Shown here piece by piece: positions 17,714-64,000 of a stretch of 64,000 nt of DNA. This DNA is from an uncultured Ignavibacteria bacterium (lineage in GTDB: Bacteria > Zixibacteria > MSB-5A5 > UM-FILTER-46-8), in NCBI GenBank assembly GCA_964563085.1, contig CAZLVS010000011.1, positions 8,328 through 72,327 of the forward strand. The letters are read 5' to 3'. The position numbers were made by a program, and so were the translations under genes. The notes below the pieces were generated by a model. It ran no database searches and was not told the DNA's origin. It saw only the letters and a program-made list of their open reading frames with translations. The stretch's first letter is position 1. Each line of letters begins with the position of its first letter.

Positions 17714-17884
17714 GTTTCCTCCGTTTTAGTTGCTATTTTAAAGACTACTATAACCCCATCCCTATAAGTTAAGATACAAAATTAACAATTTTCAAGCTTC
17801 ATCTAATTTCCCTAAGAAGGTATCTATTTACTATATAATACATAATCTCTCACATGCAAGTATAAAACGAAGCCGCTTAAAGTT

Positions 17885-17995
17885 GTTCTCGTGGCGTCAA
17901 ACGTCCTCGTTTGACGCCTTCGGTAAGACGAGTTTACGCGCTTCTGGCGCGGTAGTCTGACCGCACCTGAGAAGGATGCGTTAGTCCAGAGGGTT
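17885..17995 (+). repeat. Copy B of the tandem-hairpin intergenic element (core 17893..17963)
   Basis: Perfect 11-bp hairpin ggcgtcaaacg-tcct-cgtttgacgcc, then ttcgg, then the second hairpin cggtaagac...gtctgaccg with an inserted cgcgc/gcgcg sub-hairpin. Downstream 'gatgcgttagtcca..g.gttgacc' also matches copy C. Confidence 0.5.
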
Positions 17996-18231
17996 GACCG
18001 CCGGAGCATACAGCAGCTTAATTAGTTAAAAACCATAACTTGTCTTTGTAAAAATTCAGTCGACGATATTTGTAGAACCTGGCGGATTAAGCAACTCGAA
18101 TTATTCCGCAAATTTTCGGAACAAAAGGAACGATAATAAAATTTGTATTTGTTTTGAATCAAATAACGAGTTATCTAATCATACAAACAAATGGGGAAAT
18201 CTAATAACTGAGTTTCGAAAGGAGAATTATA

Positions 18232-18543
18232 GTGATTAATATATCGGATAAAGCAAGTAAAGAAATTCAGAAAGTTTTGCAGAGCGATAGAGCTAAAGGC
18301 AAACATCTTATTATCTTCGCTAACGGATTCGGATGAGGCGGACCCAGTATGGGAATGGCTCTGGATGAGTCCAAAGAAGGTATGAAGGAATTAGAGTCGA
18401 ATGGTATAACCGCATACATCGATCCTGTTCTGTATGAGCAGGTTAAGCCGGCTGGCGATATCAGGATTGAATATGTTGACGATCCTTTGCGGGGGAAAGG
18501 ATTTCAGATAAATATCGGCAACAGCGGCGGATGCAGCTGCTAA
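18232..18543 (+). CDS. HesB/IscA-like Fe-S assembly-type protein with an in-frame TGA (18334..18336) at the conserved first Cys; candidate selenoprotein
   Basis: GTG start with a GGAG RBS 7 nt upstream. The translation 'VINISDKASKEIQKVLQSDRAKGKHLIIFANGFG-U-GGPSMGMALDE...FQINIGNSGGCSC' aligns to the IscA/HesB pattern (..GLRLGV..GGCSG......NPNA..CGCG), with TGA exactly where the first conserved Cys lies. The ORF track only reports the post-TGA half (18349..18543). Confidence 0.6.
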
Positions 18544-19050
18544 TTTACTGCAAAGGGGGGCTTCTGCCATATTTACGGCAATATCGTAATCCATATTAAT
18601 ACTACAAATGGGGATTAAACCTCTTGACAACCGCATTTACTTATCTATTTTTACGCTCGGTCTTGAGGAGTAAAGGCGTCGGGTGAGGGTGAAACTGTCT
18701 CAAAACCTCAAAAAGATTACTTCGTCGTCCCGCATTTCGCCCCGATGAAATCCCGCATTCTGCGGGACGCAGTCGGGGCAATGACAGCAGTAGGAGTCAT
18801 TGCGAGCCCGAAGCTTGCTGAGGGCGCGGCAATCTCCTATTCTCACGCAATGCGTTAAATTAGGGATTTGAGATAGCTTCGAGGGCACCCGACGGCACGA
18901 TTCAATGGAGGGACGCGCTTCGTCGCGTCCATTGGTTACTTTTTTAAACGAAGGATTTATTCCCGTCTTGTATTCTATTCACAGAATAAAGAGAAAATCT
19001 CCAATCCCGAACTTATAGATATAATAACAAAAATAGAATGTACAGGAAAA

Positions 19051-19434
19051 GTGATTGATAAAAAGGCAGCTTTCTGGTTTGTAGTTGCACTATCATACGC
19101 AGGATTTATAACGTATATTTCATCGCAACCTCAACTGCCAACTCAGGATTTAGGCATTGATATAGGTGACAAAGCGATGCATGCAGGAGCGTATTTTGTT
19201 TTTGGATTGTTATGGTATAAAGCGTTTGCAGGAATCAGACTGAACATGCGAATTCCGGTTTTGCGGGTGGTGTTCGTATACGGATTTATTTTCGCTGCAA
19301 TCGATGAATTTCATCAGTATTTTGTACCTAACCGTGAAATGGAATTTTGGGATTTTGCCGCCGATGGTCTGGGGATAATTATGGCGATAATTATGGTGAA
19401 ATTATGGAATCTACGATTGCGAAAAGCTCATTGA
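19051..19434 (+). CDS. VanZ-like family membrane protein
   Basis: Four TM segments and 'FAAIDEFHQYFVPNREMEFWDFAADGLG', the VanZ-like motif. Confidence 0.65.
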   Translation: MIDKKAAFWFVVALSYAGFITYISSQPQLPTQDLGIDIGDKAMHAGAYFVFGLLWYKAFAGIRLNMRIPVLRVVFVYGFIFAAIDEFHQYFVPNREMEFWDFAADGLGIIMAIIMVKLWNLRLRKAH

Positions 19435-19478
19435 ATTTCTCCCGAATATTGTTGACATGAATTAAAACGCCCGATAAT

Positions 19479-43215: not shown

Positions 43216-43459
43216 TTTGGCTTGTATTATTCATAAATCCTATCAACGGTAGCGGAAGCCTTGCGCTTCCGGCGTTTCTTTGAGATACTTTATTTCAATC
43301 TGCAAATGACCTGCTCCTATTGAACTCCCGAAGGACAGGCTTTCGGCTGCGTATTAATGGGTTTCATGAATTATCCGGGTTAGGCGTCAAATCGATTTAC
43401 CGATTAGAGAGATAAAAATATTCTTGCTATCTGAAATGATCGATTATTATAATATTATC

Positions 43460-46567: not shown

Positions 46568-47479
46568 TCAAATAGCAACTTCTATACAGCGGTAGGAAAG
46601 TTCATTGAGGGGTAGTTCGCCCAGCAGAAGAACCGTATCGCCGCCTCCGGCGCCGGTAGGTTTAGCATAACCGCCGTTGTCCAATGCCCATCGCTTGAGC
46701 TCATCATGCACGGGGATACGATAGCTTATCCCTGCACTTGAACAGCATTTCGTAACTAAAGACGTGAACTCATCCAGGATGTCATAAAGGTCGGGCGGAG
46801 GTATCCTAAACCATTTCTCAGCCAATTCATCGCTTTTGTCAATCAGGCTTTTAAGACTTTTATTTTTCCTCCCGGTGTTTTTTATCCATTGGTTGAATTT
46901 CGTAACGAACTCACGGGTATCCGCTGACTTCCCGGTCCAAACCAGATTAATCGGTATCTTATAATCCGGATTGGGAGTATGCAATTGGTCCATGAAGAAA
47001 CCGTCCCGGTTACGCTTGAATACAATCGGTTTACCATAGGCGCAGACCGCGACATCGGCCCCGCTCCCCCGACCGCCTTGGGCGATTGTATGTGCATCGA
47101 TGGCGTATATCGCTGCCGAATACCTGTTCATCTCCCACGGTAAACCGGCGCGCTCAAATCGGAGTGCAATAACGCCGGCTGCTTCAGCGGCGGAGGAACC
47201 GATCCCCAGCTTAACCGCAGCGCCGCTGCCATCGCGAAAGTAAAAATCCGATCTGTCAATATCAACGCCCTGCAGGGGATGAGTGTGCTCGTAACCATCC
47301 AGTTCGGGAACAGGATATTGTATGGCGTTTTTCACAACCGGATTGGTGTTCTCCGCAGTTGGCGCATTCGATTCAGTGATTTTAAGGAAGCGAGGGACGG
47401 GGAAGAGAACAGCGCTTCCACCATAGAGAACAGCGTATTCCCCCGACAACATTACTTTTCCTGGCATGGTTACAGTCAT
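46568..47479 (-). CDS. GHMP-family kinase, most likely phosphomevalonate kinase (short form) of the mevalonate operon
   Basis: 'GKVMLSGEYAVLYGG', 'KLGIGSSAAEAAGV', 'GAGGGDTVLLLG'. Operon context with mvaD/HMGR-MVK/idi-2. Confidence 0.65.
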   Translation of the reverse strand: MTVTMPGKVMLSGEYAVLYGGSAVLFPVPRFLKITESNAPTAENTNPVVKNAIQYPVPELDGYEHTHPLQGVDIDRSDFYFRDGSGAAVKLGIGSSAAEAAGVIALRFERAGLPWEMNRYSAAIYAIDAHTIAQGGRGSGADVAVCAYGKPIVFKRNRDGFFMDQLHTPNPDYKIPINLVWTGKSADTREFVTKFNQWIKNTGRKNKSLKSLIDKSDELAEKWFRIPPPDLYDILDEFTSLVTKCCSSAGISYRIPVHDELKRWALDNGGYAKPTGAGGGDTVLLLGELPLNELSYRCIEVAI

Positions 47480-48456
47480 TTTTCTATTGAAATTATCTCG
47501 GCGCCTCCAGCCGGTTTACAGGAAATAAAGTGTGATTCACCGAGGTGATGCAGTATATTCTTAGTAATCTTTTCAGAATCACTCTGCCTGCATAAGACAA
47601 TAACGTTAGAACCGGCATCAACCGTGAAGTAGGCTTGTATACCGCTCTTTTCGCGAATGGAGCGAATTCCCCTAATAATTCTAAAGGTTGAATCATTCCA
47701 GTACAAAAGCGGTGGGCGTGATGCCATCATACAGCAATGCATGGCAAGCGCGTTTTCTTCCATTATACTGCCGATTGCTGCGAAATCATCCACTTCGATT
47801 GCAGACAGCATTTTCCGGTAATCCTCTCGGGCTTGCTTCACCCAACTGGAGTAATAGGGCGAAGTCTCCGCGCAGCGACGCATACCGAGCGATGAGGGCG
47901 TATCCTTTTGCTCGGAATGAGCGAGTAATACTATCATGCTCCATGGAACATCTTGCGGCTCTTTCAGTAATCTTGCGGACGGATCATCGTTGAGTGGAAA
48001 GGCTGATAATCCCCCGGTAATAGAACGCGCTGCCGAACCGCTTCCCTGGCGCGCTAATTTAGATAATTCCCTGTCGGAAAGCTTTCTTTCTGAGAATCCG
48101 CTCAAAGCTTTTGCTAATGCCGCGAATCCCGACGCGCTCGATGCCAGACCGGAAGATGTTGGGAAGCTGTTTTTCGATTCCAACAAAAAACTGCCCGCGA
48201 TTAGCCCTTTGTCCCGCCAGAGATCAAGATATTTCACGAGACGATGGTTTACTTCACCGGAAGTTTCCGCACCATTAAGGATGAATATATCGTTAGATTC
48301 TTCGGTTCGCGTTATGGTTGTTTCGGTAGTAAGTTTATCCAGAGCGAGCGAAATAGAGGGAGTGGCGGGAATATTCCCCGCTGTATCTTCCCGTTTTCCC
48401 CAATATTTTATCAAAGCGATATTCGAATATGCCCGGGCGATCACCCGCCGTATCAC
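47476..48456 (-). CDS. mvaD: Diphosphomevalonate decarboxylase
   Basis: 'AYSNIALIKYWGKRED', 'SSGLASSASGFAALA'. Confidence 0.85.
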   Translation of the reverse strand: MIRRVIARAYSNIALIKYWGKREDTAGNIPATPSISLALDKLTTETTITRTEESNDIFILNGAETSGEVNHRLVKYLDLWRDKGLIAGSFLLESKNSFPTSSGLASSASGFAALAKALSGFSERKLSDRELSKLARQGSGSAARSITGGLSAFPLNDDPSARLLKEPQDVPWSMIVLLAHSEQKDTPSSLGMRRCAETSPYYSSWVKQAREDYRKMLSAIEVDDFAAIGSIMEENALAMHCCMMASRPPLLYWNDSTFRIIRGIRSIREKSGIQAYFTVDAGSNVIVLCRQSDSEKITKNILHHLGESHFISCKPAGGAEIISIEK

Positions 48457-50759
48457 CGCAGCGCTCCCAACGTAAATGGAAACACCATCGGGAAATCATG
48501 GGATAGAGATTCCATCCAATCGAACTGGCTCCCGGGTTCGACCAAACCGATGACCGCGCCGCCGCCTCCGCTGCCGGTTAGTTTAGCGCCAATTGCGCCG
48601 TTTTCCAGCAAAAGCTCCACAGCCCTATCCAGCGCCGGAGTAGATACGCCCAGTTTTGCCAGAAGCTCATGATTCCGGAACATCAGTTTTCCGATTTCGT
48701 AGGTGTCACCGGTTCCCAATGCTATTCCGGCATCGACAGTCAGATTCCCGATATCTTCCAGGATACTGTTAACGTACTCCGGTTTTTGGTCGCGGAACCT
48801 CGCCACTTTCTTAACCAGCTCTATCGTTCTGGCGCCCGGTTCCACCAGGCATATTACGCCGCTTACCGGAGAGGGAACCTGGATCGGTAAGAACTCCCGC
48901 GGAGGTCCTTTACGGAACCAGAGCACCCCCTCAGAGAGAACGGTAGCCGCATCCATCCCGCTGGGATGGCCATGGAAAATCGCCTCCAGGTTCTGAACTT
49001 CATCAAAGAAATCGCTGTCCCATCTTTTTGACCGCCTCAGATGCTTATATTGCCGTAAAGCTGAGCACAGAGCGATTGAAAATGCTGCCGACGAACCTAA
49101 ACCCATGCCGGGAACCAGTTCGGATTCGATCTGGATGGCGATAGGTTCATTTCTTAGATCATATATTTCTAAGGCTACATCCACCGCATTTGAAAACAAT
49201 TGGATATCCTGGTCCGATTTGGGAACGGAAAACACCTTTTTAAAATGTGGATGAAGAAACCGGGGACCGTCAGGGTCCCTGGTAACTTTTAGCTTAATGC
49301 CGATATTGATGGCAGCGGCAATCCCGGGATAGTTGTAAACGGTAGCGTGTTCGCCAAACAGTACGATTTTACCGGGTGCGAATGTTTCTACTGGCAATTC
49401 ATCCTCTTCCTCTGTTCGTTTGGGCTGCTTCTGCAGCTTACGATATATATCCTCCGCAACCGTAATTTTAACCTCGCCCCGCCTTATCATCTCCTGCGCG
49501 ACTTCTTCCACGGCATTAGGAGGTACGCCAACGCTAACCGCAACACTGCGAGCATGCAGCGCCATGTGCCCCTTCTGAATGCCAACTGTGCTTAACGCCA
49601 ACAGGGCGGCGAAATTCTGCCCCAAGCCTACTGCGCTCAGCAATCCGGCTAATTGGCTGGCGTTTTCCACGCCGCTTATTGCGCGTAGAATTTGCACTCC
49701 GGGATGAGCTTTGACCGCGCCGCCCACGCTGCCGGTTTGCAGCGGCAGTTCGATTTCACCATGCAGACATCCGTTGGAAATCTTGTAGGTGGTAAGACCT
49801 CGGTAGATTCCATCTCGAGCGGCATATGCATGCCCGCCGGCTTCGATTGCTCGCCAGTCCTGACCCAATGCCAGGGCAGCGGCGCACAGTCCGTTAAATA
49901 TACCTTTGTTATGTGTCGCAGCCCGATAGGGATCCACATGCGCCAACCTATCAGCCTCAACCAAACGATGCGCCACCTCCTCGCCGGTGAATTCCTTCGT
50001 GGTTAGGTGTTCGAACGGCAATGTGAATTCGGCCCGAGCGATTCGCTTATCAGCGAGATTGGAAAGGATGCGAAGGTGCACACGGCCTCCGGTCACCATT
50101 TCAATCAGTGAGCCGACCGCTTCGCATGCGTAGTTGACCGCATTTGCTCCCATCGCCTCACAGACGTTAAAAAGCAGATGAACCACCAGCATCTCGCCGA
50201 CGCCTTCCCCACCATCCAAAATCCTGGTCTCGATATCAAAAACGCCGCCGCCTCTCTGCACCATTCGGGGATTTACCAGGTTCGCTTGAGCTATAATTTC
50301 ATCTTTATAATTCCCAATCTGTCTGACAGCTTCCTGCGGGTCTTTCAGGTCGAGTACCTGCACCTGCCCGATCATCACCGGATCGTTGATTCGGGTACGA
50401 AATCCTCCGCCCTTGCGAATTATCAGCGCCGCTTTTGATGCTGCGGCTATTATTGATGCTTCCTCGATCGCCATGGGAACCAGATACTCCCTGCCATCGA
50501 CCAGAAAATTCAATCCCAATCCGAGGGGTAAGCCGAAGACTCCCACGGCATTCTCCACCATGTTAACTGCATGCTTCATTCTCAGAGCGTTACCATTGCG
50601 GAGTTGCGAAACTTGTTCATCGTTTAGATTAAAACTCCGCGCCAGAAATGCGAGCCGTTGTTCAACCGACAATCGGTAAAATCCCGGTATCCGCGAAGTT
50701 CTGAATTCGGTTCCTCCGATAGGAGGTTTCTTAATGAATCGAAATCTATCCATTATCAA
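48453..50759 (-). CDS. Fusion protein: class II HMG-CoA reductase (N-terminal, about 430 aa) plus mevalonate kinase (C-terminal, about 330 aa)
   Basis: HMGR-II motifs 'ENAVGVFGLPLG', 'EAMGANAVN', 'GSVGG'. After the linker 'KRTEEEDELPVE' come MVK motifs 'APGKIVLFGEHATVYNYPGIAAAI', 'GMGLGSSAAF', 'KLTGSGGGGAVIGL'. There is no internal stop or start. Confidence 0.8.
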   Translation of the reverse strand: MIMDRFRFIKKPPIGGTEFRTSRIPGFYRLSVEQRLAFLARSFNLNDEQVSQLRNGNALRMKHAVNMVENAVGVFGLPLGLGLNFLVDGREYLVPMAIEEASIIAAASKAALIIRKGGGFRTRINDPVMIGQVQVLDLKDPQEAVRQIGNYKDEIIAQANLVNPRMVQRGGGVFDIETRILDGGEGVGEMLVVHLLFNVCEAMGANAVNYACEAVGSLIEMVTGGRVHLRILSNLADKRIARAEFTLPFEHLTTKEFTGEEVAHRLVEADRLAHVDPYRAATHNKGIFNGLCAAALALGQDWRAIEAGGHAYAARDGIYRGLTTYKISNGCLHGEIELPLQTGSVGGAVKAHPGVQILRAISGVENASQLAGLLSAVGLGQNFAALLALSTVGIQKGHMALHARSVAVSVGVPPNAVEEVAQEMIRRGEVKITVAEDIYRKLQKQPKRTEEEDELPVETFAPGKIVLFGEHATVYNYPGIAAAINIGIKLKVTRDPDGPRFLHPHFKKVFSVPKSDQDIQLFSNAVDVALEIYDLRNEPIAIQIESELVPGMGLGSSAAFSIALCSALRQYKHLRRSKRWDSDFFDEVQNLEAIFHGHPSGMDAATVLSEGVLWFRKGPPREFLPIQVPSPVSGVICLVEPGARTIELVKKVARFRDQKPEYVNSILEDIGNLTVDAGIALGTGDTYEIGKLMFRNHELLAKLGVSTPALDRAVELLLENGAIGAKLTGSGGGGAVIGLVEPGSQFDWMESLSHDFPMVFPFTLGALR

Positions 50760-51841
50760 ATTCCTTGTTTATCGAGCCATCCAAAGTTCAAAAGCCATTC
50801 TCTCAATTCACCGGTGAATATCCTGGGAATCCTCTTTAGTTCGGTTAAGTCGGCGGCGCCGGTCAAAAGCATAGCTGTCTTCAGCTCATGTATCATTTGC
50901 TCCATAAATTCGGCAGCTCCGTCTTTGCCATTATCAAGAAAACTAAGTAATATAGGGCGGGCAAATCCGGCGATATCCGCTCCCACAGCGATCGCTCGCG
51001 CAGCATCCAGGCCGTTTTCAATTCCGCCTGATGCCATTATGCAAGCCTTCTCATTTCGGATCCTGCGCGCCGCAATAAGACTGAATGCGGTCGGTATCCC
51101 CCAATCGGAGAATGTTTTGCCAGTTTGTTTGAGGAGTTTATCCGCCGCCCGATACATCTCCACTTTGGTCCAAGAAGTCCCCCCGGCTCCGGATACATCC
51201 AGATATTTAATCCCGATTTTCGATAGTTTCTTCAAACTCTCAGGGTCTATCCCGGCTCCCGTCTCTTTAACCATGACTTTGCCGTCTATCTTATCATTCA
51301 ATGCAGCCAAAGCATCGAGTAAACCGCGAAAATCCCGATGACCCTCATCCTGAATTAGTTCCTGTGCCGCATTCAGATGGACGCAGATTCCATCAGCTTC
51401 GATATCATCCATCAGACCAACTACGGCATCCAGGGGATACTCCCGTAACTCTCCAGCGCCGATATTACCCAGCAGGACGCCATCCGGTATCCATTTACGA
51501 ACCGCGAAATCATCTTTCATCTCCGGGTGGCGAAATATCACTCGCTGACTGCCCACACCGAATGCGATTCCGAACTCCGATGCGGTTTCTGCCAGGCCGC
51601 GATTCATCTCCCCGGCGAATTCGGCGCCTCCGGTCATGCCGGTAATCATCAGCGGATATTTCAGTTTTTTCCCGAAGAATTCAACTTCGGTCCGGATATC
51701 CCTTAAATCCAACTCCGGAAGGGCGCAATGCAGCAGGATTATATCACCCAGCATGGTGTTCCGACGGTGTTTCACTTCTTCCTCGGCAACAATCCGTAAA
51801 TGCTCCGATTTCCGCCTGGATATGGTCACATCATTTTCCAT
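50756..51841 (-). CDS. fni: Isopentenyl-diphosphate delta-isomerase, type 2 (FMN-dependent)
   Basis: TIM-barrel IDI-2 pattern 'PLMITGMTGG', 'FGVGSQR', 'VKETGAGI', 'LDVSGAGGTSW'. Confidence 0.85.
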   Translation of the reverse strand: MENDVTISRRKSEHLRIVAEEEVKHRRNTMLGDIILLHCALPELDLRDIRTEVEFFGKKLKYPLMITGMTGGAEFAGEMNRGLAETASEFGIAFGVGSQRVIFRHPEMKDDFAVRKWIPDGVLLGNIGAGELREYPLDAVVGLMDDIEADGICVHLNAAQELIQDEGHRDFRGLLDALAALNDKIDGKVMVKETGAGIDPESLKKLSKIGIKYLDVSGAGGTSWTKVEMYRAADKLLKQTGKTFSDWGIPTAFSLIAARRIRNEKACIMASGGIENGLDAARAIAVGADIAGFARPILLSFLDNGKDGAAEFMEQMIHELKTAMLLTGAADLTELKRIPRIFTGELREWLLNFGWLDKQGI

Positions 51842-53432: not shown

Positions 53433-56400
53433 ATGAAACGTTATCCAGCGCCTGCAATTTTGATTTTGTTGGCAATCCTCTTGCTGAGTCTGAATTCGAC
53501 AGGATTCGCGATGCAAGCAGACACAAAAGGGGAAGCGCTTTACGAGCTGAAAGTCAATTACCCCGGAGTTTCTACTTATCAATCCGGTAAACGAATTACC
53601 AGCTTATGGGGCATAACTTTCGGCTACGGCGCCAATCCGCAGGCAACCGCAGAGAACTTCCGGATGAATTATTCCGAAATCTTCGGTGTGGCACCGGCAG
53701 ATTTGAAACCCCACAGTCTCCTTCCCGACCAACGTCATACTCAACCCGTGATGTACAATCGGGAGAATGATTCTTATAAATTCACCCTGGTTTATTACAG
53801 CCAGTATAAAGAGGATATTCCGGTATTCCGTTCCGAACTCAGATTGCTGGTTCGCAACGAAGCCAATTATCCTTTGACGCTGGCGCGTTCGGCTTTGAAA
53901 GACTTAAAGGACTTCCGGGTTCCCTCCGGAGCAACCTTAAACAAAGGCTTAGCCGAAACAGCCGCGAAATCTTTCAATCCCAATCTGGATTACTTCGAAG
54001 AACCTCGTTTGGTTATCTGGGCTGGCGCCAACGAGGAAGCTGCTGAACCGAGATTAGCAATGGAAATTATCGGCGACAACAATAGGCCTGCTACTGACGA
54101 TTATGAAAAGTGGTTACTATTGGTCGATGCTTTAACCGGTGAGATACTGTATTCCGAAGATATGATTCTTAACGTTGATGTCGATGGCAACGTTAGCGGC
54201 AGAGCCACAGACAATTTCGCCGCAGAGATCTGCGACGATGAGGTCTCCTTCGGCATGCCTTATTCCCGTGTTTACATTCAGGGCGGAAATACTTCTTATG
54301 CCGATGAGTTCGGTGATTTCACCATACCGTTCGGTGGATCAGCGCCGGTGGATGTTTACTCCCATTTGCGCGGCTCCTGGTTCCGTGTGTATAACGAAGC
54401 CGGCGCCGAAGCGGAACTGGACACCACCGTAACCCCTCCGGGTCCGGCGAATTTCCTGCACAATTCATCCAATAGCAATGAATATGTGAGGGCGCAGGTT
54501 AACGGATACCTGCACGCCAACGTCGTTAGGGATTTTACACTGACTTATAATCCCTCCTACCCGGGTTTACAGCAAACCGAGTTTCCGGTAAATGTCAACA
54601 TCAACAGCAGTTGTAACGCTTATTACGATTATCAATCCATCAACTTCTACCGCTCCGGCGGCGGATGCCCGAATACAGCGTTTGGAACCGTGGTTCACCA
54701 CGAATACGGTCACCATTTGGTTGCCATGGCTGGAAGCGGCCAGGGGCAGTACGGCGAGGGTATGAGCGATTGCATGGGTGTAATGATTACCGATGATCCC
54801 GGTCTCGCTTACGGTTTCCTCGGAAACTGTAATGAACCGCTAAGGAACGCCGACAACAATAAGCAATATCCCTGCAGCGGCGGAATACATGACTGCGGAC
54901 AGCTCCTTTCCGGATGCGTTTGGGATACGCGCAACGCCTTAATGGCAAACTATCCCAACACCTACATGGATATTCTGGCTAATTTGGCGGTTAACGCTGT
55001 CTTACTGCACACAGGGGATCTGATCACTCCACAGATTACTATAGATTACCTGACCCTGGATGATGATAACGGTAATATCTATGACGGAACTCCTCATTAT
55101 AATGAGATCTGTTCCGGCTTCGGCGCTCATAATATGGATTGCCCCGATCTGCAATTGATCGCCTTCGATTATCCCAACGGTCTGCCGGAACTGTTTGATC
55201 CGGATGGCGGAACCACGATTCGCGTGGAAGTTTCAGGCATTACCGGTTCACCGGAGCCCGGCACCGGAATCATGTATTACAATGATGGCGGCGGATGGGA
55301 ACAGCAGCCGATGGATGTTGTATCTCCGAATGTTTACGACGCTGTCTTCCCGCCGTTTGAGTGCGGGCTGGTGATCGAATATTACTTCAGCGCAGAAACC
55401 ACCGACGGTTTCGTAGCTTATGATCCCTCGGGCGCTCCCGGAACCACTTACTCGGGTGTAGCCGCTCATGGTATGATCACGGTGTTCGAAGACGATTTCT
55501 CGACTGACCAGGGCTGGACAGGTTTGGGTGGTCAGGGCGAATGGACAATTGGACCTTGTATGGGCGGTAATGGCGACGACTATTACGGCGGTCCCGATCC
55601 TTCCGAAGACCATTCACCGACTTCGGATAACAGGGCGCTCGGTAACGACATGACAGCCGGCGATGGTGATTATGAAAACTACCTCGGAACCACTTACTGG
55701 GTAACCTCTCCCAATATCGATTGCTCCGGCGTCTATGCATTGCAGTTGAGCTTCTGGCGGTGGCTCGGAGTAGAACGGGATTGGTACGATGAAGCCTACT
55801 TCCAGGCATACAACGGTTCTTCCTGGATCACTCTTTGGGAAAATGGCAGCGAGACTATCGACGAAGCTTCATGGAGCGAGCAGAATTACGACCTCACAGG
55901 AATCGCCGACGACAATCCCAACTTCAAGATCAGATTCGGAATAGGGCCCACTGATGGTTCCTGGCAGTACTGCGGGTGGAATATCGATGATGTGCAAATC
56001 GTGGCTTATACCTGCGAACCGTCTGCAGATATCACTGTGGATATGATACCGGATAATCCTCCGATCGAAGTTCAGCCGGGCGGATATTTCACCTATACCG
56101 GAATACTGACCAATAACACTGCTCAACCTCAGAGCTCCGATGTTTGGGTGATGTTGGATGTGCCGGGTTATGGCAGTTACGGACCGGTTCAGCAGTTCAA
56201 CAATGTGCCTCTGGGGCCGAACCAAACCTTAAGTTATGAAGGCGCGCGGCAGAATATACCGGGATTCGCACCGTTGGGCGAGTATGATTATATCGCTTAC
56301 TGCGGCGACTATCCCAATTCGCCGGTCGATTCGGCATCCTTCACATTCACCGTTGTTCAGGGCATCGGCGGAGACGCTGACGGATGGATTTTGAACGGCT

Positions 56401-56693
56401 GGTTCAATGATGATATCGAAACTCTGCCTTCAAGGACCGAACTATTGGGCAACTTCCCGAATCCGTTTAATCCGACCACAACCTTCAGCTATGCCTTAGC
56501 TGATGAATCCAATGTGTCTCTGGAAGTCTACAATCTGATGGGACGTAAGGTAGCGACGGTATTTGAAGGTCATCAGGAAGCCGGTTACAGGACAGTTCAG
56601 TGGAATGCAGGAGATTATTCCTCAGGCGTCTACTTCTACAAGCTGACCGTTGATGACCAGGTATTTACCAAGCGTATGACCTTGTTGAAGTAA
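53433..56693 (+). CDS. Secreted thermolysin/fungalysin-like (M4/M36-type gluzincin) zinc metalloprotease, 1086 aa, with a T9SS C-terminal sorting domain
   Basis: Signal peptide. 'VVHHEYGHH' HExxH plus downstream 'GEGMSDCMG' (the E..SD third-ligand motif of M4/M36). Pre-CTD domain shared with 60199..61848 and 63103..64000. CTD 'NFPNPFNPTTTFSYAL...GVYFYKLTVDDQVFTKRMTLLK'. Confidence 0.8.
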   Translation: MKRYPAPAILILLAILLLSLNSTGFAMQADTKGEALYELKVNYPGVSTYQSGKRITSLWGITFGYGANPQATAENFRMNYSEIFGVAPADLKPHSLLPDQRHTQPVMYNRENDSYKFTLVYYSQYKEDIPVFRSELRLLVRNEANYPLTLARSALKDLKDFRVPSGATLNKGLAETAAKSFNPNLDYFEEPRLVIWAGANEEAAEPRLAMEIIGDNNRPATDDYEKWLLLVDALTGEILYSEDMILNVDVDGNVSGRATDNFAAEICDDEVSFGMPYSRVYIQGGNTSYADEFGDFTIPFGGSAPVDVYSHLRGSWFRVYNEAGAEAELDTTVTPPGPANFLHNSSNSNEYVRAQVNGYLHANVVRDFTLTYNPSYPGLQQTEFPVNVNINSSCNAYYDYQSINFYRSGGGCPNTAFGTVVHHEYGHHLVAMAGSGQGQYGEGMSDCMGVMITDDPGLAYGFLGNCNEPLRNADNNKQYPCSGGIHDCGQLLSGCVWDTRNALMANYPNTYMDILANLAVNAVLLHTGDLITPQITIDYLTLDDDNGNIYDGTPHYNEICSGFGAHNMDCPDLQLIAFDYPNGLPELFDPDGGTTIRVEVSGITGSPEPGTGIMYYNDGGGWEQQPMDVVSPNVYDAVFPPFECGLVIEYYFSAETTDGFVAYDPSGAPGTTYSGVAAHGMITVFEDDFSTDQGWTGLGGQGEWTIGPCMGGNGDDYYGGPDPSEDHSPTSDNRALGNDMTAGDGDYENYLGTTYWVTSPNIDCSGVYALQLSFWRWLGVERDWYDEAYFQAYNGSSWITLWENGSETIDEASWSEQNYDLTGIADDNPNFKIRFGIGPTDGSWQYCGWNIDDVQIVAYTCEPSADITVDMIPDNPPIEVQPGGYFTYTGILTNNTAQPQSSDVWVMLDVPGYGSYGPVQQFNNVPLGPNQTLSYEGARQNIPGFAPLGEYDYIAYCGDYPNSPVDSASFTFTVVQGIGGDADGWILNGWFNDDIETLPSRTELLGNFPNPFNPTTTFSYALADESNVSLEVYNLMGRKVATVFEGHQEAGYRTVQWNAGDYSSGVYFYKLTVDDQVFTKRMTLLK

Positions 56694-56728
56694 AAAGTAG
56701 CCATTCAACCGGAGTATTAACCTTTGCA

Positions 56729-56760
56729 GGGGCGAGTTTTGCACTCGCCCCTTTTTTTTA
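56729..56760 (+). terminator. Intrinsic terminator of the metalloprotease gene
   Basis: 9-bp stem ggggcgagt/actcgcccc, loop tttgc, followed by T8. Confidence 0.75.
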
Positions 56761-56999
56761 TGGTCTAATCCGGATAATTGATAAAGACCATTAATCCGTA
56801 GTCAAAGGTTTGTCCATCTCATGGAGGTTTCAACGCCTCCGGCGTGGACAAAAGTCTTGCACAAATATTACCGAACAGGAATGTCCGGTCTACCGGTGGT
56901 TGTAATCATTGTTCCGCCATCGGGTGTCCTCATCCAACACCCATGTCTCGATTGCATCGGGACAAAACGAGCCGCAGGTCGGGTTCTGAGCGAGCGTAG

Positions 57000-57135
57000 C
57001 GAGCGAAAAACTGACATAGCGGTATTTTTGTGCGGCGTCAAACGTCTTCGTTTAACGCCTTCGGTCAGACAAGGAAGTCTGACCGCACGCAAATGAGATG
57101 CATCAATCCATGAGTCAACCGTCAGGGCGCATGAT
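57000..57135 (+). repeat. Copy C of the tandem-hairpin intergenic element (core 57034..57085). It is followed at 57195..57234 by hairpin aaggctg/cagcctt plus T6 on the + strand.
   Basis: 'gagcgaaaaactgacatagcggtatttttgtgcggcgtcaaacg-tctt-cgtttaacgcc-ttcgg-tcagac-aaggaa-gtctgaccgcac'. The second hairpin is a perfect 9 bp. Confidence 0.5.
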
Positions 57136-57254
57136 AATTCAGTTAGCCTGGAGCCATAAATCCGGGGAGTTTGATGTCAAAATCCACCAATCAATCAAAA
57201 GGCTGCCCGAGATTGGACAGCCTTTTTTCTAATAGTTATTAATTATCGTAGGAA

Positions 57255-58898
<1,644 letters not shown>

Positions 58899-58915
58899 TT
58901 ATCTCCTCCCCAAAA

Positions 58916-59203
58916 CTATTCTATGATTGCTAAAATGTCAGATTCGCGCATTATCAGGTATTCGGTATCATCAACTGTCACTTCAGTACCGGAATACTTA
59001 CCATATAACACCTTGTTACCGGATTTCACCTGCATTTCCACTAATTTACCATCGTCGGAAACCCGACCAGGACCTACCGCCACGATTTCACCTTCCTGAG
59101 GTCTTTCTTTGGCGGTGTCGGGAATGATAATTGATCCCTTTTTAGTTTCTTTTTCCTCCAAAGGTCTGATTAATACCCTATCAGCAAGAGGTTTTACGTT
59201 CAT
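58916..59203 (-). CDS. groS: Co-chaperonin GroES. The start is taken at the ATG preceded by AGGAGGA rather than the longer ORF-track start.
   Basis: '[33 protein letters not shown]...'. Confidence 0.9.
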
Positions 59204-59271
59204 ACCTTCCTCCTTATTTGGTTTATATGTATTTGTTAAGTTACTATTAATCAATAGATTATCAAATCCTG

Positions 59272-59298
59272 TTAGCACTCGCCCGGGTGGAGTGCTAA
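59272..59298. promoter_or_regulatory. CIRCE operator (HrcA binding site) upstream of groES
   Basis: Perfect TTAGCACTC-N9-GAGTGCTAA inverted repeat, 69 nt upstream of the groES start. Confidence 0.88.
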
Positions 59299-59399
59299 CA
59301 TTTGAACGCAGAAATTAATCGCGAGTTCCACTTTTGTCAAGAAATTTTTTGATTTTTTGCATTTTAAAGCGTTTAATAGATATCAAACGGAGGAAGCTT

Positions 59400-59912
59400 A
59401 TGAAATACGGACAGACAGTATTATATATTGGCATATTGATAGCGGTTTGTATGCTTGCCAGTTCATGTTGTATATTGGGCGGCGTATGTAAAACATCGAA
59501 AACTGACATTAGCGGCTTCGATACGGGATCAGAGATTCTCCGAGCTTTGGATGTACGAATATTAAGCCGTTCAATGGGTTATGCGCTGGGATCGCCGTTT
59601 GACATGAAGATGCGCGTTACTAACAAGTCCGATGATGAGATCATTTTGGAATTTCCCGAAGGTTATGTTTTCGATTTCTACATTTTTCAAAAAAATGAGT
59701 TAGTGTATCGCTATTCGGAGGATGAGCGGTATCCCACCGGCTTGAGGGAATTTAAGCTTGCGCCGGGTGAATCCAAGGACTTCGGAGGAATCTGGCTCTG
59801 CAAAGACAACAACGGCGTCTGGGTACGGGGAGGACGCTATGAGATGATAGGGATCATTAACACCGACCCACCGGTTTTGTCTAATATCCTGCAATTCGGA
59901 TTGACAGATTAA
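59400..59912 (+). CDS. Lipoprotein with a BsuPI-like (intracellular proteinase inhibitor, Ig-like) domain
   Basis: Lipobox-like 'CMLASSCC'. 'LEFPEGYVFDFYIFQKNELVYRYSEDERYPTGLREFKLAPGESKDFGGIW' matches the BsuPI pattern (beta-sandwich with a conserved W). GGAGG RBS. Adjacent to a secreted metzincin. Confidence 0.5.
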   Translation: MKYGQTVLYIGILIAVCMLASSCCILGGVCKTSKTDISGFDTGSEILRALDVRILSRSMGYALGSPFDMKMRVTNKSDDEIILEFPEGYVFDFYIFQKNELVYRYSEDERYPTGLREFKLAPGESKDFGGIWLCKDNNGVWVRGGRYEMIGIINTDPPVLSNILQFGLTD

Positions 59913-60198
59913 GAAATATATCAAGCCTAAACGAGCATGACTCCCTTCCCGGGAGGTTCTTCGGGTTTTTCGCTTACTGCATTCGCTCAGAACCGACTTA
60001 CGTGCGGTTGTCGGGTAATTGCGCCTGACGGTGCTTTCACGCGGCAGACAAGTTTTTCTGCTTCGGGCGGTTTTACGCGCCTGCGACGTGGACATATATC
60101 TTTTTTCGGATGCAAGGGCAGCCTGGCCAAGGCTGCGCCTTGACCATGCTGCCCTCGTAAATTCACTCGTCTAACGATTGAAGACGATCGACCAGGGA

Positions 60199-61848
60199 CT
60201 ATTTTAGTAAATGCATCCTCTTAGCCATAATCTGGTCGCCAGCCTGGAGCCGGTAGAAATAGACGCCGCTGGAGTGGTGAGAAGCATCCCAGGAAACAGT
60301 ATGCTGTCCTGCCGCAAGCCCGCCATTCACCAGAGTCGCGACCTTCTGCCCTAACAGGTTATGAATCTCAAGCTTTACGTTTTTGGCTTCGGACAGATTG
60401 AAAGTGATATTCGTTTGGGCGTTAAACGGATTGGGATAATTGCCCAAAAGTTCGAATTCCGCAGGGTTGCCCTTAACCGAATTCCATCCGCCTTCCACAT
60501 TCCACAAGTTACCGGAACTCTCTGACCTGTCACGTCCGGCAGCAACTGTAAATTGGAAGGAATCGGCAACATATATATTATCGGGGTAGTCACCGGCATT
60601 TGAGATATAATCGTAGGCTCCGGTTGGCGCAAAATTAGGCACGCTTTGATTAAGGTGCGCATTTATGCTCTGCCCCGAGTTAAGATATATATCCTGAAAA
60701 GTCCGCAACGGTCCATATTCGCCGTAGCCGGGAACATTCAGCATTAGCCAAACATCGGTCGTGACCGGATCGACTCCGGCATTGGTAAGGAATCCGGTTA
60801 ATCCGAATTGACCTCCCGGCGGTACTTCGATCGGATAATCATCAGGGATCATCGATATTTCAATATCCGGTGAAGATTCCTCGAACCAGCTCGATAAAAC
60901 CTCATAAGTCCAGCACTGTATACGCCCCCATTGCTGCGGTGTTAAGTCAGTCCAGCACGGACTTCCACCCAGAGTGCCGTAACTCATGTAGTTTTCGGGA
61001 GAAGTGTCACCCCAGGGGACTCCGCAGCAAGGATCGGTCCCGCCCGGATCGTAGCAGTAGTAATTGATAGGCGTTGGCGGCGTATCCGAACAGAGGTCGC
61101 CGGTGATGTCGGCATCCTGACCGTCCGCCTGCTCCCAGCACTCCCCGCACTGCGGTACTTCGCTTACACCATGGTGAGTATGCCACAAGCCTATCGTATG
61201 CCCGATTTCATGGACCAAAACATTGTCATGGAAAGGAGTGGGATAAACATGCCCTTCGCTCAGTACAACACCGCCCTGGTCGGAAAGAGGAAGACGGTAA
61301 TCATCCCATGGGAACGTACCGAAAGATCCGCCAGTAGTTCCGGTAATGTATATATTCATTTGCGATTCGGGATTGAGGGCATAAACTCGCTTCATCGCTT
61401 CCGCATCCGCATAATAACGGAATCGGGTAGAATTCACGAATCTGTAATCATAGACGAATTGAATTCTAACCTGTAGGTATTCCTCGTTAAGATGGTTTAC
61501 CATATCTTCCAGCGTAGCTTCATCGGTAGCGCAATTGCTTCCGTTGTCCTCGCAGAAGATGTGAAAATAAAGGCGAATATAAGCAATCGGATCATCGGGA
61601 TCAGGTATTGCCGCATCGCGATTCTCCGGCTCGTCACACGGTCCGTTGTAGCAATCATGATATAGCATACCATATTTCTCTATTTGTCCCTTTTTGTAGA
61701 TTTCCCAGGTTTCACAGAAACCATCCACATCCGCCAATGCGGTTGAAGAAGCGAGGGATATAGCGAAAAGCAGGAACGCTGCGAATGATATCCTCACTGC
61801 ATTAGTTGAGATTGTAGTCATCTCTTTTGGGTTGCGCTTCATGTTCAT
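60199..61848 (-). CDS. Secreted metzincin (M43/pappalysin-ulilysin-like) zinc metalloprotease with a T9SS C-terminal sorting domain
   Basis: Signal peptide. 'HEIGHTIGLWHTHH' (HExxHxxGxxH). Cys-rich region. Shared pre-CTD domain. CTD 'NYPNPFNAQTNITFNL...GVYFYRLQAGDQIMAKRMHLLK'. Confidence 0.8.
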   Translation of the reverse strand: MNMKRNPKEMTTISTNAVRISFAAFLLFAISLASSTALADVDGFCETWEIYKKGQIEKYGMLYHDCYNGPCDEPENRDAAIPDPDDPIAYIRLYFHIFCEDNGSNCATDEATLEDMVNHLNEEYLQVRIQFVYDYRFVNSTRFRYYADAEAMKRVYALNPESQMNIYITGTTGGSFGTFPWDDYRLPLSDQGGVVLSEGHVYPTPFHDNVLVHEIGHTIGLWHTHHGVSEVPQCGECWEQADGQDADITGDLCSDTPPTPINYYCYDPGGTDPCCGVPWGDTSPENYMSYGTLGGSPCWTDLTPQQWGRIQCWTYEVLSSWFEESSPDIEISMIPDDYPIEVPPGGQFGLTGFLTNAGVDPVTTDVWLMLNVPGYGEYGPLRTFQDIYLNSGQSINAHLNQSVPNFAPTGAYDYISNAGDYPDNIYVADSFQFTVAAGRDRSESSGNLWNVEGGWNSVKGNPAEFELLGNYPNPFNAQTNITFNLSEAKNVKLEIHNLLGQKVATLVNGGLAAGQHTVSWDASHHSSGVYFYRLQAGDQIMAKRMHLLK

Positions 61849-62679
61849 TCCTCCGGAATTGGGTTTAATTCAGGCTGTTATAAAATTTCCTTGTTAGTAG
61901 ATTTTGAGATGCCTTTTTCTATTTCACCTGGAAGCATAGCTGATATTTATGAACTTCCCATAATCCCGGGTGTACTGCGATAGCGATATGAGAGTTCACC
62001 AAGTGTTCGTTTTAATGTTAACTTAAACCGTAGGGCATAAACTACGGTTCCATCTTTCAACTTAGAAAGCTGATATCCAAGGACGATGCCCGGGAGCATT
62101 GGAAACGATACTCTGGTTCATTAAAACACTAAAATACAATATAATTAAAAAGGGCAAAAATCCAACTAATTTAATGATCAATCTTATTGAATCAAATACC
62201 GAAGGGATTAGAACTACCTCTTATTCCGAACTTAAAGATCGCATGCTCTGCAGCGTTGTATCAGCCTCAGAAGCTAAGATACTGCGGGACTATATCTTGA
62301 ATTTGATGCTCACTTACCGGAGTAGCGGCTAAGCAATCCTTCCGATGCTGTTATACGGTCTGTTTATCTTTACAATAAATTAGGGTCATTTATCGATTAA
62401 CTGTAGGGGATAACGCGCTAAGTATTAACAGATTACAAGAATATTACAGCTAATCTCTTTGCGTAGAATTATATACGCATTCAATAGTTTTTTTACTCGT
62501 ATTGACAAAACTTAACTCTATCGTATATACGCTTATCAAATTGACAGAAATCACCGACTGAGTAATCATAATAATCTGTTAGATGTCAGGTGTAAATGTC
62601 ACTATTTGATAAAAACTCAGACCCTGTTTGAATTGAAAAGAAAAGATTGAAGTGATGAAATTAGCTGTGGAGGATTAAA

Positions 62680-62982
62680 ATGAACTCAAAAAACAAAAAA
62701 ATAACCGGTTCGGTTTTGAAAGTCGGGGTAATCGCATTGTTTGTGGCTATAATTGCCTGGTTTGGACTATCTATTGGACACCGGGACAGATCGCACACGG
62801 ACCGGACGCAAAACCCGGTAGTGATACTAACCCTGGAAGATGATCCCAATTGTCCCTACGACTATGAACCATGCCGTTATTTCAGCGGCGATGAATACTT
62901 GAGCGTGGAAGTTGGAGATACAATCTACAGCCCGCAGGGATATGCTCACGTCGTCATGGAAAAGACCGTGCTCTATGAATAG
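62680..62982 (+). CDS. Small hypothetical membrane-anchored protein (100 aa)
   Basis: GGAGG RBS, N-terminal TM 'VGVIALFVAIIAWFGL', followed by a terminator. Confidence 0.45.
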   Translation: MNSKNKKITGSVLKVGVIALFVAIIAWFGLSIGHRDRSHTDRTQNPVVILTLEDDPNCPYDYEPCRYFSGDEYLSVEVGDTIYSPQGYAHVVMEKTVLYE

Positions 62983-63050
62983 TTCGTAACTCGCATCTGA
63001 TGAGCGCTTTGGGGATTATCAGCATTTCTTTACAGACTGCCTTTAAATGA

Positions 63051-63083
63051 AACTGCCGGAGATTAAACCCCGGCAGTTTTTTT
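63051..63083. terminator. Bidirectional intrinsic terminator between 62680..62982 and the T9SS gene
   Basis: 9-bp stem aactgccgg/ccggcagtt followed by T7 on the + strand. On the - strand it is preceded by an A-run. Confidence 0.65.
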
Positions 63084-63102
63084 CTATCCCGAACTGCTAA
63101 TA

Positions 63103-64000
63103 CTATTTCAGCAATGTCATCCGTTTAGTGAGAGCTTCGTCTCCTGCGGTTAATTTGTAGAAGTAGATACCGGATGACTGACTTGAAGCATCCCAAATTA
63201 CACTATGCAGACCGGCATCCATGTAACCCTCAACCAATGTTGCCACTTTCTGTCCCATGATGTTATAAACTTCAATGGCAACGTCACCGGCTTTCGGCAA
63301 CTCGTAGGTTATGGTTGTGGTGGCGTTAAACGGATTAGGGAAGCTGCCAATTAAAGCATATTTGCTGGGAATCTCAGCGGAATCAAATCCGCCCTCAAGA
63401 ATCCATCCATCAGCGCCATCAGCGGTTCGAGCGCCGCTAACAGTGAACGGGAAGCAGAAGGAATCATCCTTCACGCTCGGGCGATCACCGCAATAGCAGC
63501 AGTACTGATACTCTCCCTGAGGAGCGTAACCGGGCACATTTTGCCGCATATGTGCGCTTATGTGCTGTCCCGGATTAAGGGGACGATTGGGAAAACTAAA
63601 CTGCTGATAGAAATTTCCGAATCCCCATACGCCGCCCCAGATATCGGTAACAATGGTCTCGTTACACGGATTTTCGATATGTCCGGTTACGCCGAATCTA
63701 CCGCCAGGCGGCACAATAACCGGGTCCTCGTCAGGAACCATCCAGATATTGCAAACGCATTCGCCGGCATCGGCGTATAACCGGAATTCATGGTATGCAT
63801 CCGATTCCGTATCGAAAACGAAGTAATTAAAGAACTCCTGTTCGACCATATACTGGATTGAGAACCGCATATCATACTCGGTAAAAGCCTCGATTCCAGG
63901 ACCGGTGGAATACCACCTTACACCGCCAAGAGGGCGAGGATTACCGCGAGGATCATAATAGACGAATTCAGAATACCACGGTCCCGTTCCCGTGGGAGCG
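63103..64000 (-). CDS. T9SS-CTD secreted protein, 5'-truncated at the window edge. The frame is open to position 64000; the ORF-track M at 63870 is internal.
   Basis: Shares the approximately 100-aa pre-CTD domain ('MVPDEDPVIVPPGGRFGVTG...CFPFTV') with the two metalloproteases. CTD 'SFPNPFNATTTITYEL...GIYFYKLTAGDEALTKRMTLLK'. Confidence 0.7.
   Translation of the reverse strand, partial: APTGTGPWYSEFVYYDPRGNPRPLGGVRWYSTGPGIEAFTEYDMRFSIQYMVEQEFFNYFVFDTESDAYHEFRLYADAGECVCNIWMVPDEDPVIVPPGGRFGVTGHIENPCNETIVTDIWGGVWGFGNFYQQFSFPNRPLNPGQHISAHMRQNVPGYAPQGEYQYCCYCGDRPSVKDDSFCFPFTVSGARTADGADGWILEGGFDSAEIPSKYALIGSFPNPFNATTTITYELPKAGDVAIEVYNIMGQKVATLVEGYMDAGLHSVIWDASSQSSGIYFYKLTAGDEALTKRMTLLK

Follow-up and report, generated by a model that had tools for sequence, protein, structure and literature searches.

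The 64,000-nucleotide stretch analyzed here (the window; positions 8,328 to 72,327 of contig CAZLVS010000011.1, assembly GCA_964563085.1) derives from an uncultured bacterium of the Zixibacteria and encodes several proteins that end in a type IX secretion system (T9SS) C-terminal domain (CTD). We focus on a domain that three of them, here named p1, p2, and p3, carry just ahead of this tail, and which forms part of a conserved C-terminal cassette. The p1 protein (53433..56693, plus strand; 1,086 amino acids [aa]) comprises a signal peptide, an M4-type propeptide, a putative, divergent thermolysin-like catalytic domain, a possible MAM-like region, the pre-CTD domain, a linker, and a T9SS type-A CTD. 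In p2 (60199..61848, minus strand; 549 aa), a signal peptide, a prosegment, and a predicted M43 pappalysin-type catalytic domain precede the same domain, linker, and CTD, while p3 (63103..63999, minus strand) is truncated: the 298 aa encoded here are the C-terminal part of a cargo of 658 aa, whose reading frame continues up to the edge of the window. A fourth protein, a papain-family C1 peptidase (15659..17713, minus strand), has a T9SS CTD without the cassette and provides an internal control. An initial annotation, made from the sequence alone, had counted four T9SS cargos in the window, three of them proteases, a count with which both the open reading frames (ORFs) and the tails agree.

All four tails score above the 27-bit gathering cut-off of the Por_Secre_tail model (PF18962), with 33.4 bits for p1 (E = 5.5e-8; aa 1008-1082), 45.9 bits for p2 (E = 7e-12; aa 471-543), 38.7 bits for p3 (E = 1.2e-9), and 38.2 bits for the C1 peptidase. 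The TIGR04183 model agrees on the tails (45-48 bits versus a cut-off of 23; E = 2.5e-12 for p1). This places the type-A sorting domains at 56454..56690 on the plus strand in p1 (PF18962 and TIGR04183), and at 60202..60438 in p2 and 63106..63342 in p3, both on the minus strand (PF18962). N-terminal Sec signal peptides were recognized by eye in the translations of p1, MKRYPAPAILILLAILLLSLNSTGFA, and p2, ...ISFAAFLLFAISLASSTALA. Every ORF named in the initial annotation exists, including the truncated p3, whose frame remains open as far as base 63999, so that the gene extends past the window. The complete p3 gene is found on a near-identical contig (L070:5387-7363), where its product, apart from the CTD, has no Pfam match in its N-terminal part. 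Just beyond the window end, p3 is followed by a further cargo gene, the fourth to have this cassette (L070:7846-10245, minus strand; 799 aa), the N-terminal 590 aa of which likewise lack a Pfam match. Together, p2, p3, and this fourth cargo gene form a tandem run on one strand.

The domain shared by the three window cargos spans 109-112 aa and lies at 56025..56360 in p1 (plus strand; aa 865-976), 60538..60870 in p2 (minus strand; aa 327-437), and 63433..63759 in p3 (minus strand; aa 81-189 of the fragment), in each case ending 31-33 aa before the tail model begins. The three copies are 50, 42, and 40% identical to each other in pairwise comparison, and even the weakest pair is matched by BLASTP with an E value of 8e-27. 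When a hidden Markov model (HMM) of the three copies was run against the six-frame translation of the window, it recovered only p1, p2, and p3, the next match having an E value of ~1; the C1 peptidase contains no copy.

This domain belongs to no named family that we could find. Scans of the full-length proteins against Pfam and NCBIfam left it unmatched in all three, covering only the tail in p1 and p3. The isolated domain sequences matched nothing in Pfam at E ≤ 10, tail models and CARDB included. A profile search of PDB sequences with the domain gave only chance-level matches, the best full-length one being the mite ML-domain allergen Der f 2, which was nonsignificant (E = 0.34). Moreover, no family covering the domain appeared among the best 25 of the 53 families matched by 76 full-length relatives (E ≤ 1e-3). 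The Pfam and NCBIfam scans thus confirm the earlier proposal of a distinct pre-CTD domain, outside the named families, that is common to three T9SS type-A cargos, and we regard the domain as a new, unnamed immunoglobulin (Ig)-like family, albeit in an arrangement, an Ig-like domain before a CTD, that is already known.

The Ig-like nature of the domain, a guess in the initial annotation, is borne out by structure prediction. AlphaFold2, run on a four-sequence alignment, returned an eight-stranded, all-beta model with a mean predicted local distance difference test (pLDDT) score of 91.4. Foldseek matches in the PDB were led by the CARDB domain of PF1109 (3idu/2kl6; template-modeling [TM] score 0.66-0.69, with 0.68 for 3idu; E = 7e-5), and further matches included RbmA, RhoGDI, complement MG domains, and fibronectin type III (FnIII)-like domains from a dextranase and from GH3 enzymes, at sequence identities of 10-23%. 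In a viral structure library, the top match was a DUF11 protein (TM score 0.71). The model is that of an E-set Ig-like sandwich, predicted to be closest to CARDB (PF07705) and DUF11, with which the domain has an "x-V-x-N" strand pattern in common. At the sequence level, however, it differs from CARDB: identity is 20%, none of the three copies matches in Pfam, and CARDB is absent from the 25 best families considered above. We know of no defined link between CARDB and T9SS tails. A p3-like subfamily of the domain has extra conserved cysteines, namely, a CC before the first strand and a C-D-S near the end, which suggest disulfide bonds and would fit an extracytoplasmic location.

Between the domain and the CTD lies a linker that is itself conserved. 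It occupies 56361..56453 in p1 (plus strand; aa 977-1007), with the sequence WILNGWF at 56385..56405, as well as 60439..60537 in p2 (WNVEGGW) and 63343..63432 in p3 (WILEGGF), the latter two on the minus strand. In a survey of 64 sources totaling 611 kb, we collected 101 ORFs with the domain, 95 of which also have a tail. The gap from domain to tail measured 28-42 aa in 93 of these 95 cassettes, and the linker tryptophan, embedded in the motif G-x-A-D-x-W-x-L-x-G-W-F, was invariant in all 89 nonredundant ones. The motif was absent from 27 CTD-only ORFs of the same genomes, among them the C1 peptidase of the window. Variants of it persist after several internal copies of the domain that are not followed by a CTD, and for this reason we assign the motif to the domain, of which it probably forms an extra edge strand, leaving a flexible linker of ~12-15 aa.

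Domain and tail also travel together. Their pairwise identities correlate with a Spearman coefficient of 0.20, a value not reached in any of 999 Mantel permutations, and 60 of the 81 pairs whose domains are ≥70% identical have N termini without detectable similarity. These results indicate that the cassette of ~220 aa, composed of Ig-like domain, ~30-aa linker, and type-A CTD, moves as one unit that has been recombined onto different passengers.

How widespread is this cassette? A word-index search with the domain profile found a single relative only. An exhaustive HMMER search against 1.84 billion representatives returned 2,362 clusters at E ≤ 1e-3, 946 at E ≤ 1e-10, and 119 at E ≤ 1e-30. Of the top 150 of these 2,362 clusters, 126 have a domain that ends 91-130 aa from the C terminus, and Por_Secre_tail was detected in 72 of the 76 full-length relatives scanned. 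The N-terminal partners in these 76 are mutually unrelated, comprising Peptidase_S8, M14, C25, C1, M28, FG-GAP, Omp28, InhA-like MAM, beta-helix, and cupredoxin modules. All named cluster members come from Zixibacteria. A genome scan with one genome per species, for which we used two narrow peptide patterns from the four-sequence alignment such that its breadth is a lower bound, yielded 63 loci, 62 of them in four Zixibacteria metagenome-assembled genomes (MAGs) and one in candidate division LCP-89. In the DNA fetched for these loci, the distinct ORFs with the domain number at least 58 for MAG Bin_336 and at least 27 for Bin_366. A syntenic contig of a close relative (L001) carries the domain with 95% identity, and the best relatives of p1 and of the BsuPI-like protein described below are likewise from Zixibacteria, which marks the window as DNA of this phylum. 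Taken together, the cassette is apparently a lineage-specific family that Zixibacteria have amplified and put onto many unrelated passengers.

Two further observations concern the domain outside the cassette. Two proteins of ~2,200 aa (P0005 and P0006, on a 17-kb Joint Genome Institute contig) have two tandem copies near the C terminus, low-complexity acidic ends, and no T9SS tail, indicating that the domain is not strictly tied to the T9SS. In addition, the N-terminal part of p3 contains the motif DFE(D/N)(V/I)P..YW(Y/F)(F/Y/H)GGNQNL, and the motif is also found directly after internal domain copies in P0015, P0076, and P0121, which suggests a second unannotated domain traveling with the Ig-like one.

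As to the passengers in the window, p1 is one of the two predicted zinc proteases with a cassette. Its thermolysin-propeptide-like region (53511..54167; approximately aa 27-245) and its catalytic domain (54180..55142; approximately aa 250-570), like the tail, are encoded on the plus strand, and the latter contains the sequences HEYGH (54699..54713; aa 423-427) and GEGMSD (54753..54770; aa 441-446). Without exception, the 34 homologues examined have residues H423, E424, H427, E442, and D446, which make up the HExxH and the ExxxD downstream of it. Outside the tail, p1 has no match in Pfam, NCBIfam, or single-sequence searches of the PDB, its subregions match nothing in Pfam at E ≤ 10, and the NCBIfam model NF038113 (T9SSA_dep_M36) matched its CTD only. 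A profile of the 34 homologues, however, matched the propeptides of prothermolysin (5a3y; E = 4.3e-8) and of vibriolysin MCP-02 (E = 1e-5). The AlphaFold model of the catalytic domain (pLDDT 94) retrieved aureolysin (E = 1.8e-9), vibriolysin, LasB, and M36 entries (E = 5e-7) in Foldseek, and the top 20 matches were all M4 or M36 entries. The M4/M36-like label of the initial annotation is thus correct at the level of the clan, as judged by the Foldseek matches and the prothermolysin propeptide profile. From homologue profile and model, we predict p1 to be a divergent thermolysin-like zinc protease of a family that has no model. With thermolysin (M4) and fungalysin (M36) of clan MA(E), it shares the HExxH and ExxxD elements, the M4-type propeptide, and the two-lobed fold, but it is only 12-15% identical to them and is matched by none of the M4 or M36 models of Pfam and NCBIfam. 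The possible MAM-like region of p1 is suggested by a subthreshold match of an orthologue (E = 0.006). Relatives of p1, most of them annotated as "hypothetical," occur in Zixibacteria, from which the best ones come, and in Phycisphaerae/Planctomycetota. In this wider group, the p1-type protease domain (P0151-P0270) is often fused to other C-terminal modules, such as dockerin (PF00404) or PKD (PF00801/PF18911), instead of the T9SS cassette.

The other cassette-bearing protease, p2, had been noted as a metzincin, an assignment that can now be narrowed to family M43. Its catalytic domain (60868..61431, minus strand; aa 140-327) contains HEIGHTIGLWH (aa 213-223) and the Met-turn NYMSY. Comparison with PAPP-A and PAPP-A2 by phmmer gave E values of 6e-25 (5.8e-25 for PAPP-A) over aa 140-327, with the HEIGHTIGLWH zinc site aligned as well as NYMSY, the latter to NFMSY of PAPP-A; the Pfam model Peptidase_M43 (PF05572) reached 14.2 bits, below its cut-off of 23. 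By these sequence matches, p2 is classified as a zinc protease of the lower-pappalysin type. Like the lower pappalysins of M43B, ulilysin, mirolysin, and cytophagalysin, it has the HEXXHXXGXXH motif and Met-turn, and, also as in these enzymes, its N-terminal prosegment includes a cysteine (PMC11674741). Mirolysin and cytophagalysin are T9SS-associated, and in cytophagalysin, too, Ig-like domains precede a T9SS-type CTD; however, these number seven in cytophagalysin, compared with the one domain of the new family in p2 (PMC11674741).

Given the observed anatomy, fold, distribution, fixed spacing, and shuffling of the cassette, what might it do? With moderate confidence, we favor the reading that p1, p2, p3, and the fourth cargo gene encode Sec-exported T9SS cargos with a Zixibacteria-type cassette in which the domain acts both as a spacer and as a platform for processing; the spacer role, like secretion and cleavage, is what we infer here. 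In this scheme, the CTD would be the export signal and would be removed after translocation, while the Ig-like domain would stay on the mature protein as a C-terminal stalk. It would insulate the passenger from the CTD and might present the linker, the expected site of processing and attachment, at a fixed geometry.

A precedent is provided by the gingipain RgpB, in which an Ig-like domain sits before the tail with a 9-aa linker between them. This domain was suggested to be a "spacer or insulator," and processing is proposed to be dictated by motifs in each of the two Ig-like domains (PMC4804311). As in the Ig superfamily (IgSF) domains of RgpB, Kgp, and PPAD (PMC4804311), the Zixibacteria domain is an Ig-like sandwich between passenger and type-A CTD, giving a tandem of two Ig folds. 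It is nonetheless a different sequence family: the profile search of the PDB gave nothing significant, and neither gingipains nor PPAD are among the top 50 Foldseek matches. It is also longer, with 109-112 aa and eight strands compared with ~83 aa and seven strands, and is followed by a linker of ~30 aa with an invariant tryptophan, in contrast with the disordered 9-aa linker of RgpB (PMC4804311). Lastly, the Zixibacteria domain is present in dozens of copies per genome, shuffled among unrelated passengers, and its identified members all come from Zixibacteria.

Several points weigh against the spacer-and-platform reading. No T9SS core gene, such as those for SprA/Sov, PorV, PorU, or GldK/L/M/N, was identified among the ORFs of the window or in ~610 kb of fetched Zixibacteria DNA, where the NCBIfam scan for such genes took in the nine largest ORFs. 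The sole candidate is a 926-aa protein of Bin_366 with a T9SS tail (L018:4950-7727, plus strand), whose match to the PorU peptidase region scored 68 bits versus a cut-off of 420 and which could be either a gingipain-like C25 cargo or a divergent sortase. T9SS export is therefore deduced from the tails and from the place of the phylum in the Fibrobacteres-Chlorobi-Bacteroidetes (FCB) group, in which the T9SS is known (PMC11205867). In the literature searched, we found no paper linking Zixibacteria with the T9SS or type IX secretion. The linker, moreover, is about three times as long as that of RgpB and conserved beyond the needs of a passive spacer, in a few proteins the domain is internal or has no CTD with it, and the Trp motif is placed by deduction, the structure model covering the domain rather than the whole cassette. 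Closer inspection concerned the best 150 of the 2,362 clusters, and with two narrow patterns in the genome scan, the restriction to one phylum may be overstated.

The alternative that fares best, though we consider it unlikely, is that the T9SS sorting signal has an obligatory, lineage-specific extension formed by domain and Trp motif together, which would be read by the shuttle or sortase proteins of Zixibacteria. This would fit the fixed distance between domain and CTD, the invariant tryptophan, and the co-inheritance seen in the Mantel test, as well as the presence of the domain on 58 of the 59 CTD ORFs in the fetched Bin_336 loci, a sample that is biased. It would also agree with the proposal for RgpB that motifs in both adjacent Ig-like domains dictate CTD processing (PMC4804311). 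An obligatory signal is, however, hard to reconcile with the 27 CTD-only ORFs of the same genomes, the window C1 peptidase among them, or with a CTD-only share of 15 of 42 in Bin_366, nor would it account for internal and tandem domain copies that no CTD follows. In a broader and similarly tentative form, domain and Trp motif would go beyond passive spacing and take part in a sorting and anchoring code specific to Zixibacteria, either as an obligatory second element recognized by shuttle or sortase proteins or as an anchor to lipid or lipopolysaccharide (LPS) that replaces covalent attachment to anionic LPS (A-LPS). If true, this would explain why the distance between domain and tail is fixed on most cargos of the phylum.

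Rather less probable is a role as a binding module, similar to a carbohydrate-binding module or an adhesin, that tethers enzymes to a polymeric substrate or matrix. Some structural neighbors do hint in this direction: CARDB is described as "cell adhesion related," RbmA is a scaffold protein of biofilms, and the matched FnIII-like domains come from GH3 and dextranase enzymes. At 10-23% identity, however, these are generic Ig-like sandwiches. The passengers, which range from S8, M14, C25, C1, M28, M43, and M4-like peptidases to FG-GAP, Omp28, and cupredoxin proteins, are functionally unrelated, and the position of the domain is fixed relative to the CTD, not to the catalytic domain.

We give very little credence to the idea that the modeled sandwich binds lipid or LPS in the manner of RhoGDI or ML/MD-2 domains and so holds cargos on the outer membrane noncovalently. 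RhoGDI is indeed among the Foldseek matches (TM score 0.62-0.68; E = 1.6e-4), and Der f 2, the best full-length match in the PDB profile search, is an ML-domain protein; yet the likeness to either fold is no stronger than that to many other Ig-like folds, and the Der f 2 sequence match is at chance level. Finally, proximity to the tail is all that would favor the shared region being the N-terminal part of the canonical Por_Secre_tail/FlgD_ig tail, an explanation we dismiss because the tail envelopes begin 31-33 aa further downstream, the domain alone matches no tail model at E ≤ 10, and CTD cargos without the domain exist.

T9SS biology rests almost wholly on Bacteroidota, and the cassette adds a large, hitherto unannotated cargo module, with more than 2,000 protein clusters, from an uncultured FCB phylum. 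It is not a system of a new kind; the placement of an Ig-like domain ahead of a T9SS tail is already established. Rather, its fixed geometry and invariant tryptophan offer a handle on what beyond the CTD sets the processing and attachment of cargos, a question left open by De Diego et al. 2016 (PMC4804311). On the practical side, dozens of proteins per Zixibacteria genome that are listed as "hypothetical" would have their C-terminal 220 aa named by a cassette HMM, which would also flag the secretome.

A single-domain gene next to p2 deserves separate mention. The 170-aa protein encoded at 59400..59912 (plus strand) matches the BsuPI family (PF12690; 49 bits versus a cut-off of 22.9, E = 6.5e-13; PDB 3isy, E = 1.3e-4) and has a signal sequence whose end, A-S-S-C, resembles a lipobox. 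We found nine homologues, all from Zixibacteria and all with PF12690. A hydrophobic leader, small residues, and a cysteine are present in eight of nine aligned sequences, including the window protein, while P0277 lacks the cysteine at the aligned position. These features support the lipoprotein assignment made initially and a predicted periplasmic or membrane location. The window protein shares the Pfam family and the single Ig-like domain with its Bacillus subtilis prototype, IPI (BsuPI; PDB 3isy), and signal peptides are common in the family (PMC3901451); it differs in being lipoprotein-like and restricted to Zixibacteria, and the prototype acts on subtilisins. Kinship with the pre-CTD domain was also considered, but hhalign (probability 2%) detected no relationship.

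The initial annotation had further cast this lipoprotein as the self-protection partner of the metzincin, a suggestion that did not hold up. Family membership, the predicted location, and adjacency to p2, seen both in the window and in L001, its close relative, would all be compatible with a dedicated inhibitor of p2, which we nevertheless judge highly improbable. The BsuPI-like gene diverges from groES, converges with p2, and has its own terminator-like hairpin (59948..59965); its adjacency to an M43 gene is seen in these two genomes only. Orthologues that are 55-69% identical lie beside an FG-GAP cargo and tig-clpP-clpX-lon, beside a BNR cargo, or between groES and a DUF7901 cargo, none of them adjoining an M43 gene, and the other 62 loci, with ~100 cassette cargos, contain no BsuPI-like gene. 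Furthermore, B. subtilis IPI, the only characterized member of a family since removed from MEROPS, inhibits subtilisins and is ineffective on metallopeptidases (PMC3901451). We conclude that this is a conserved single-domain Zixibacteria gene that lies beside p2 by chance; by analogy with IPI, subtilases would be the likelier target if its product is an inhibitor at all. As a side observation, the gene is found next to groES in two Zixibacteria genomes (window 58916..59912; L069:1-921) and next to tig-clpP-clpX-lon in a third (L064:6001-12618), that is, it recurs by proteostasis genes and not by one particular secreted protease.

Nor does the region qualify as a compositional or mobile "island," as it had been termed. 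Its G+C fraction of 0.44-0.52 is that of the rest of the window, groEL and groES are located inside the cargo cluster, the neighbors are mevalonate-pathway and other housekeeping genes, and no mobility genes were found among the window ORFs. There is no tRNA boundary either: the only tRNA of the window is at 43459, and Rfam and tRNA scans of the window otherwise returned nothing relevant. Genes for CTD cargos are simply very common in genomes of this kind.

Of the smaller features, a strong terminator-like hairpin lies 3′ of p1 (56728..56752). Between p2 and p3, a 100-aa ORF with one predicted transmembrane helix (62680..62982, plus strand) is conserved in MAG Bin_336 (L045, 174 bits), is also among the called genes of L070-L072, and matches no family. 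A stretch of ~1.7 kb (17714..19478) upstream of the C1 peptidase gene contains only short ORFs of 50-127 aa and has no Rfam match. The mevalonate-pathway cluster (46568..51841, minus strand) encodes a fusion of hydroxymethylglutaryl-coenzyme A (HMG-CoA) reductase and GHMP kinase (768 aa), diphosphomevalonate decarboxylase, a GHMP kinase, and a flavin mononucleotide (FMN)-dependent dehydrogenase that is likely a type 2 isopentenyl diphosphate isomerase. This cluster may bear on reports that FCB bacteria are able to make isoprenoid ether lipids (PMC7852524).

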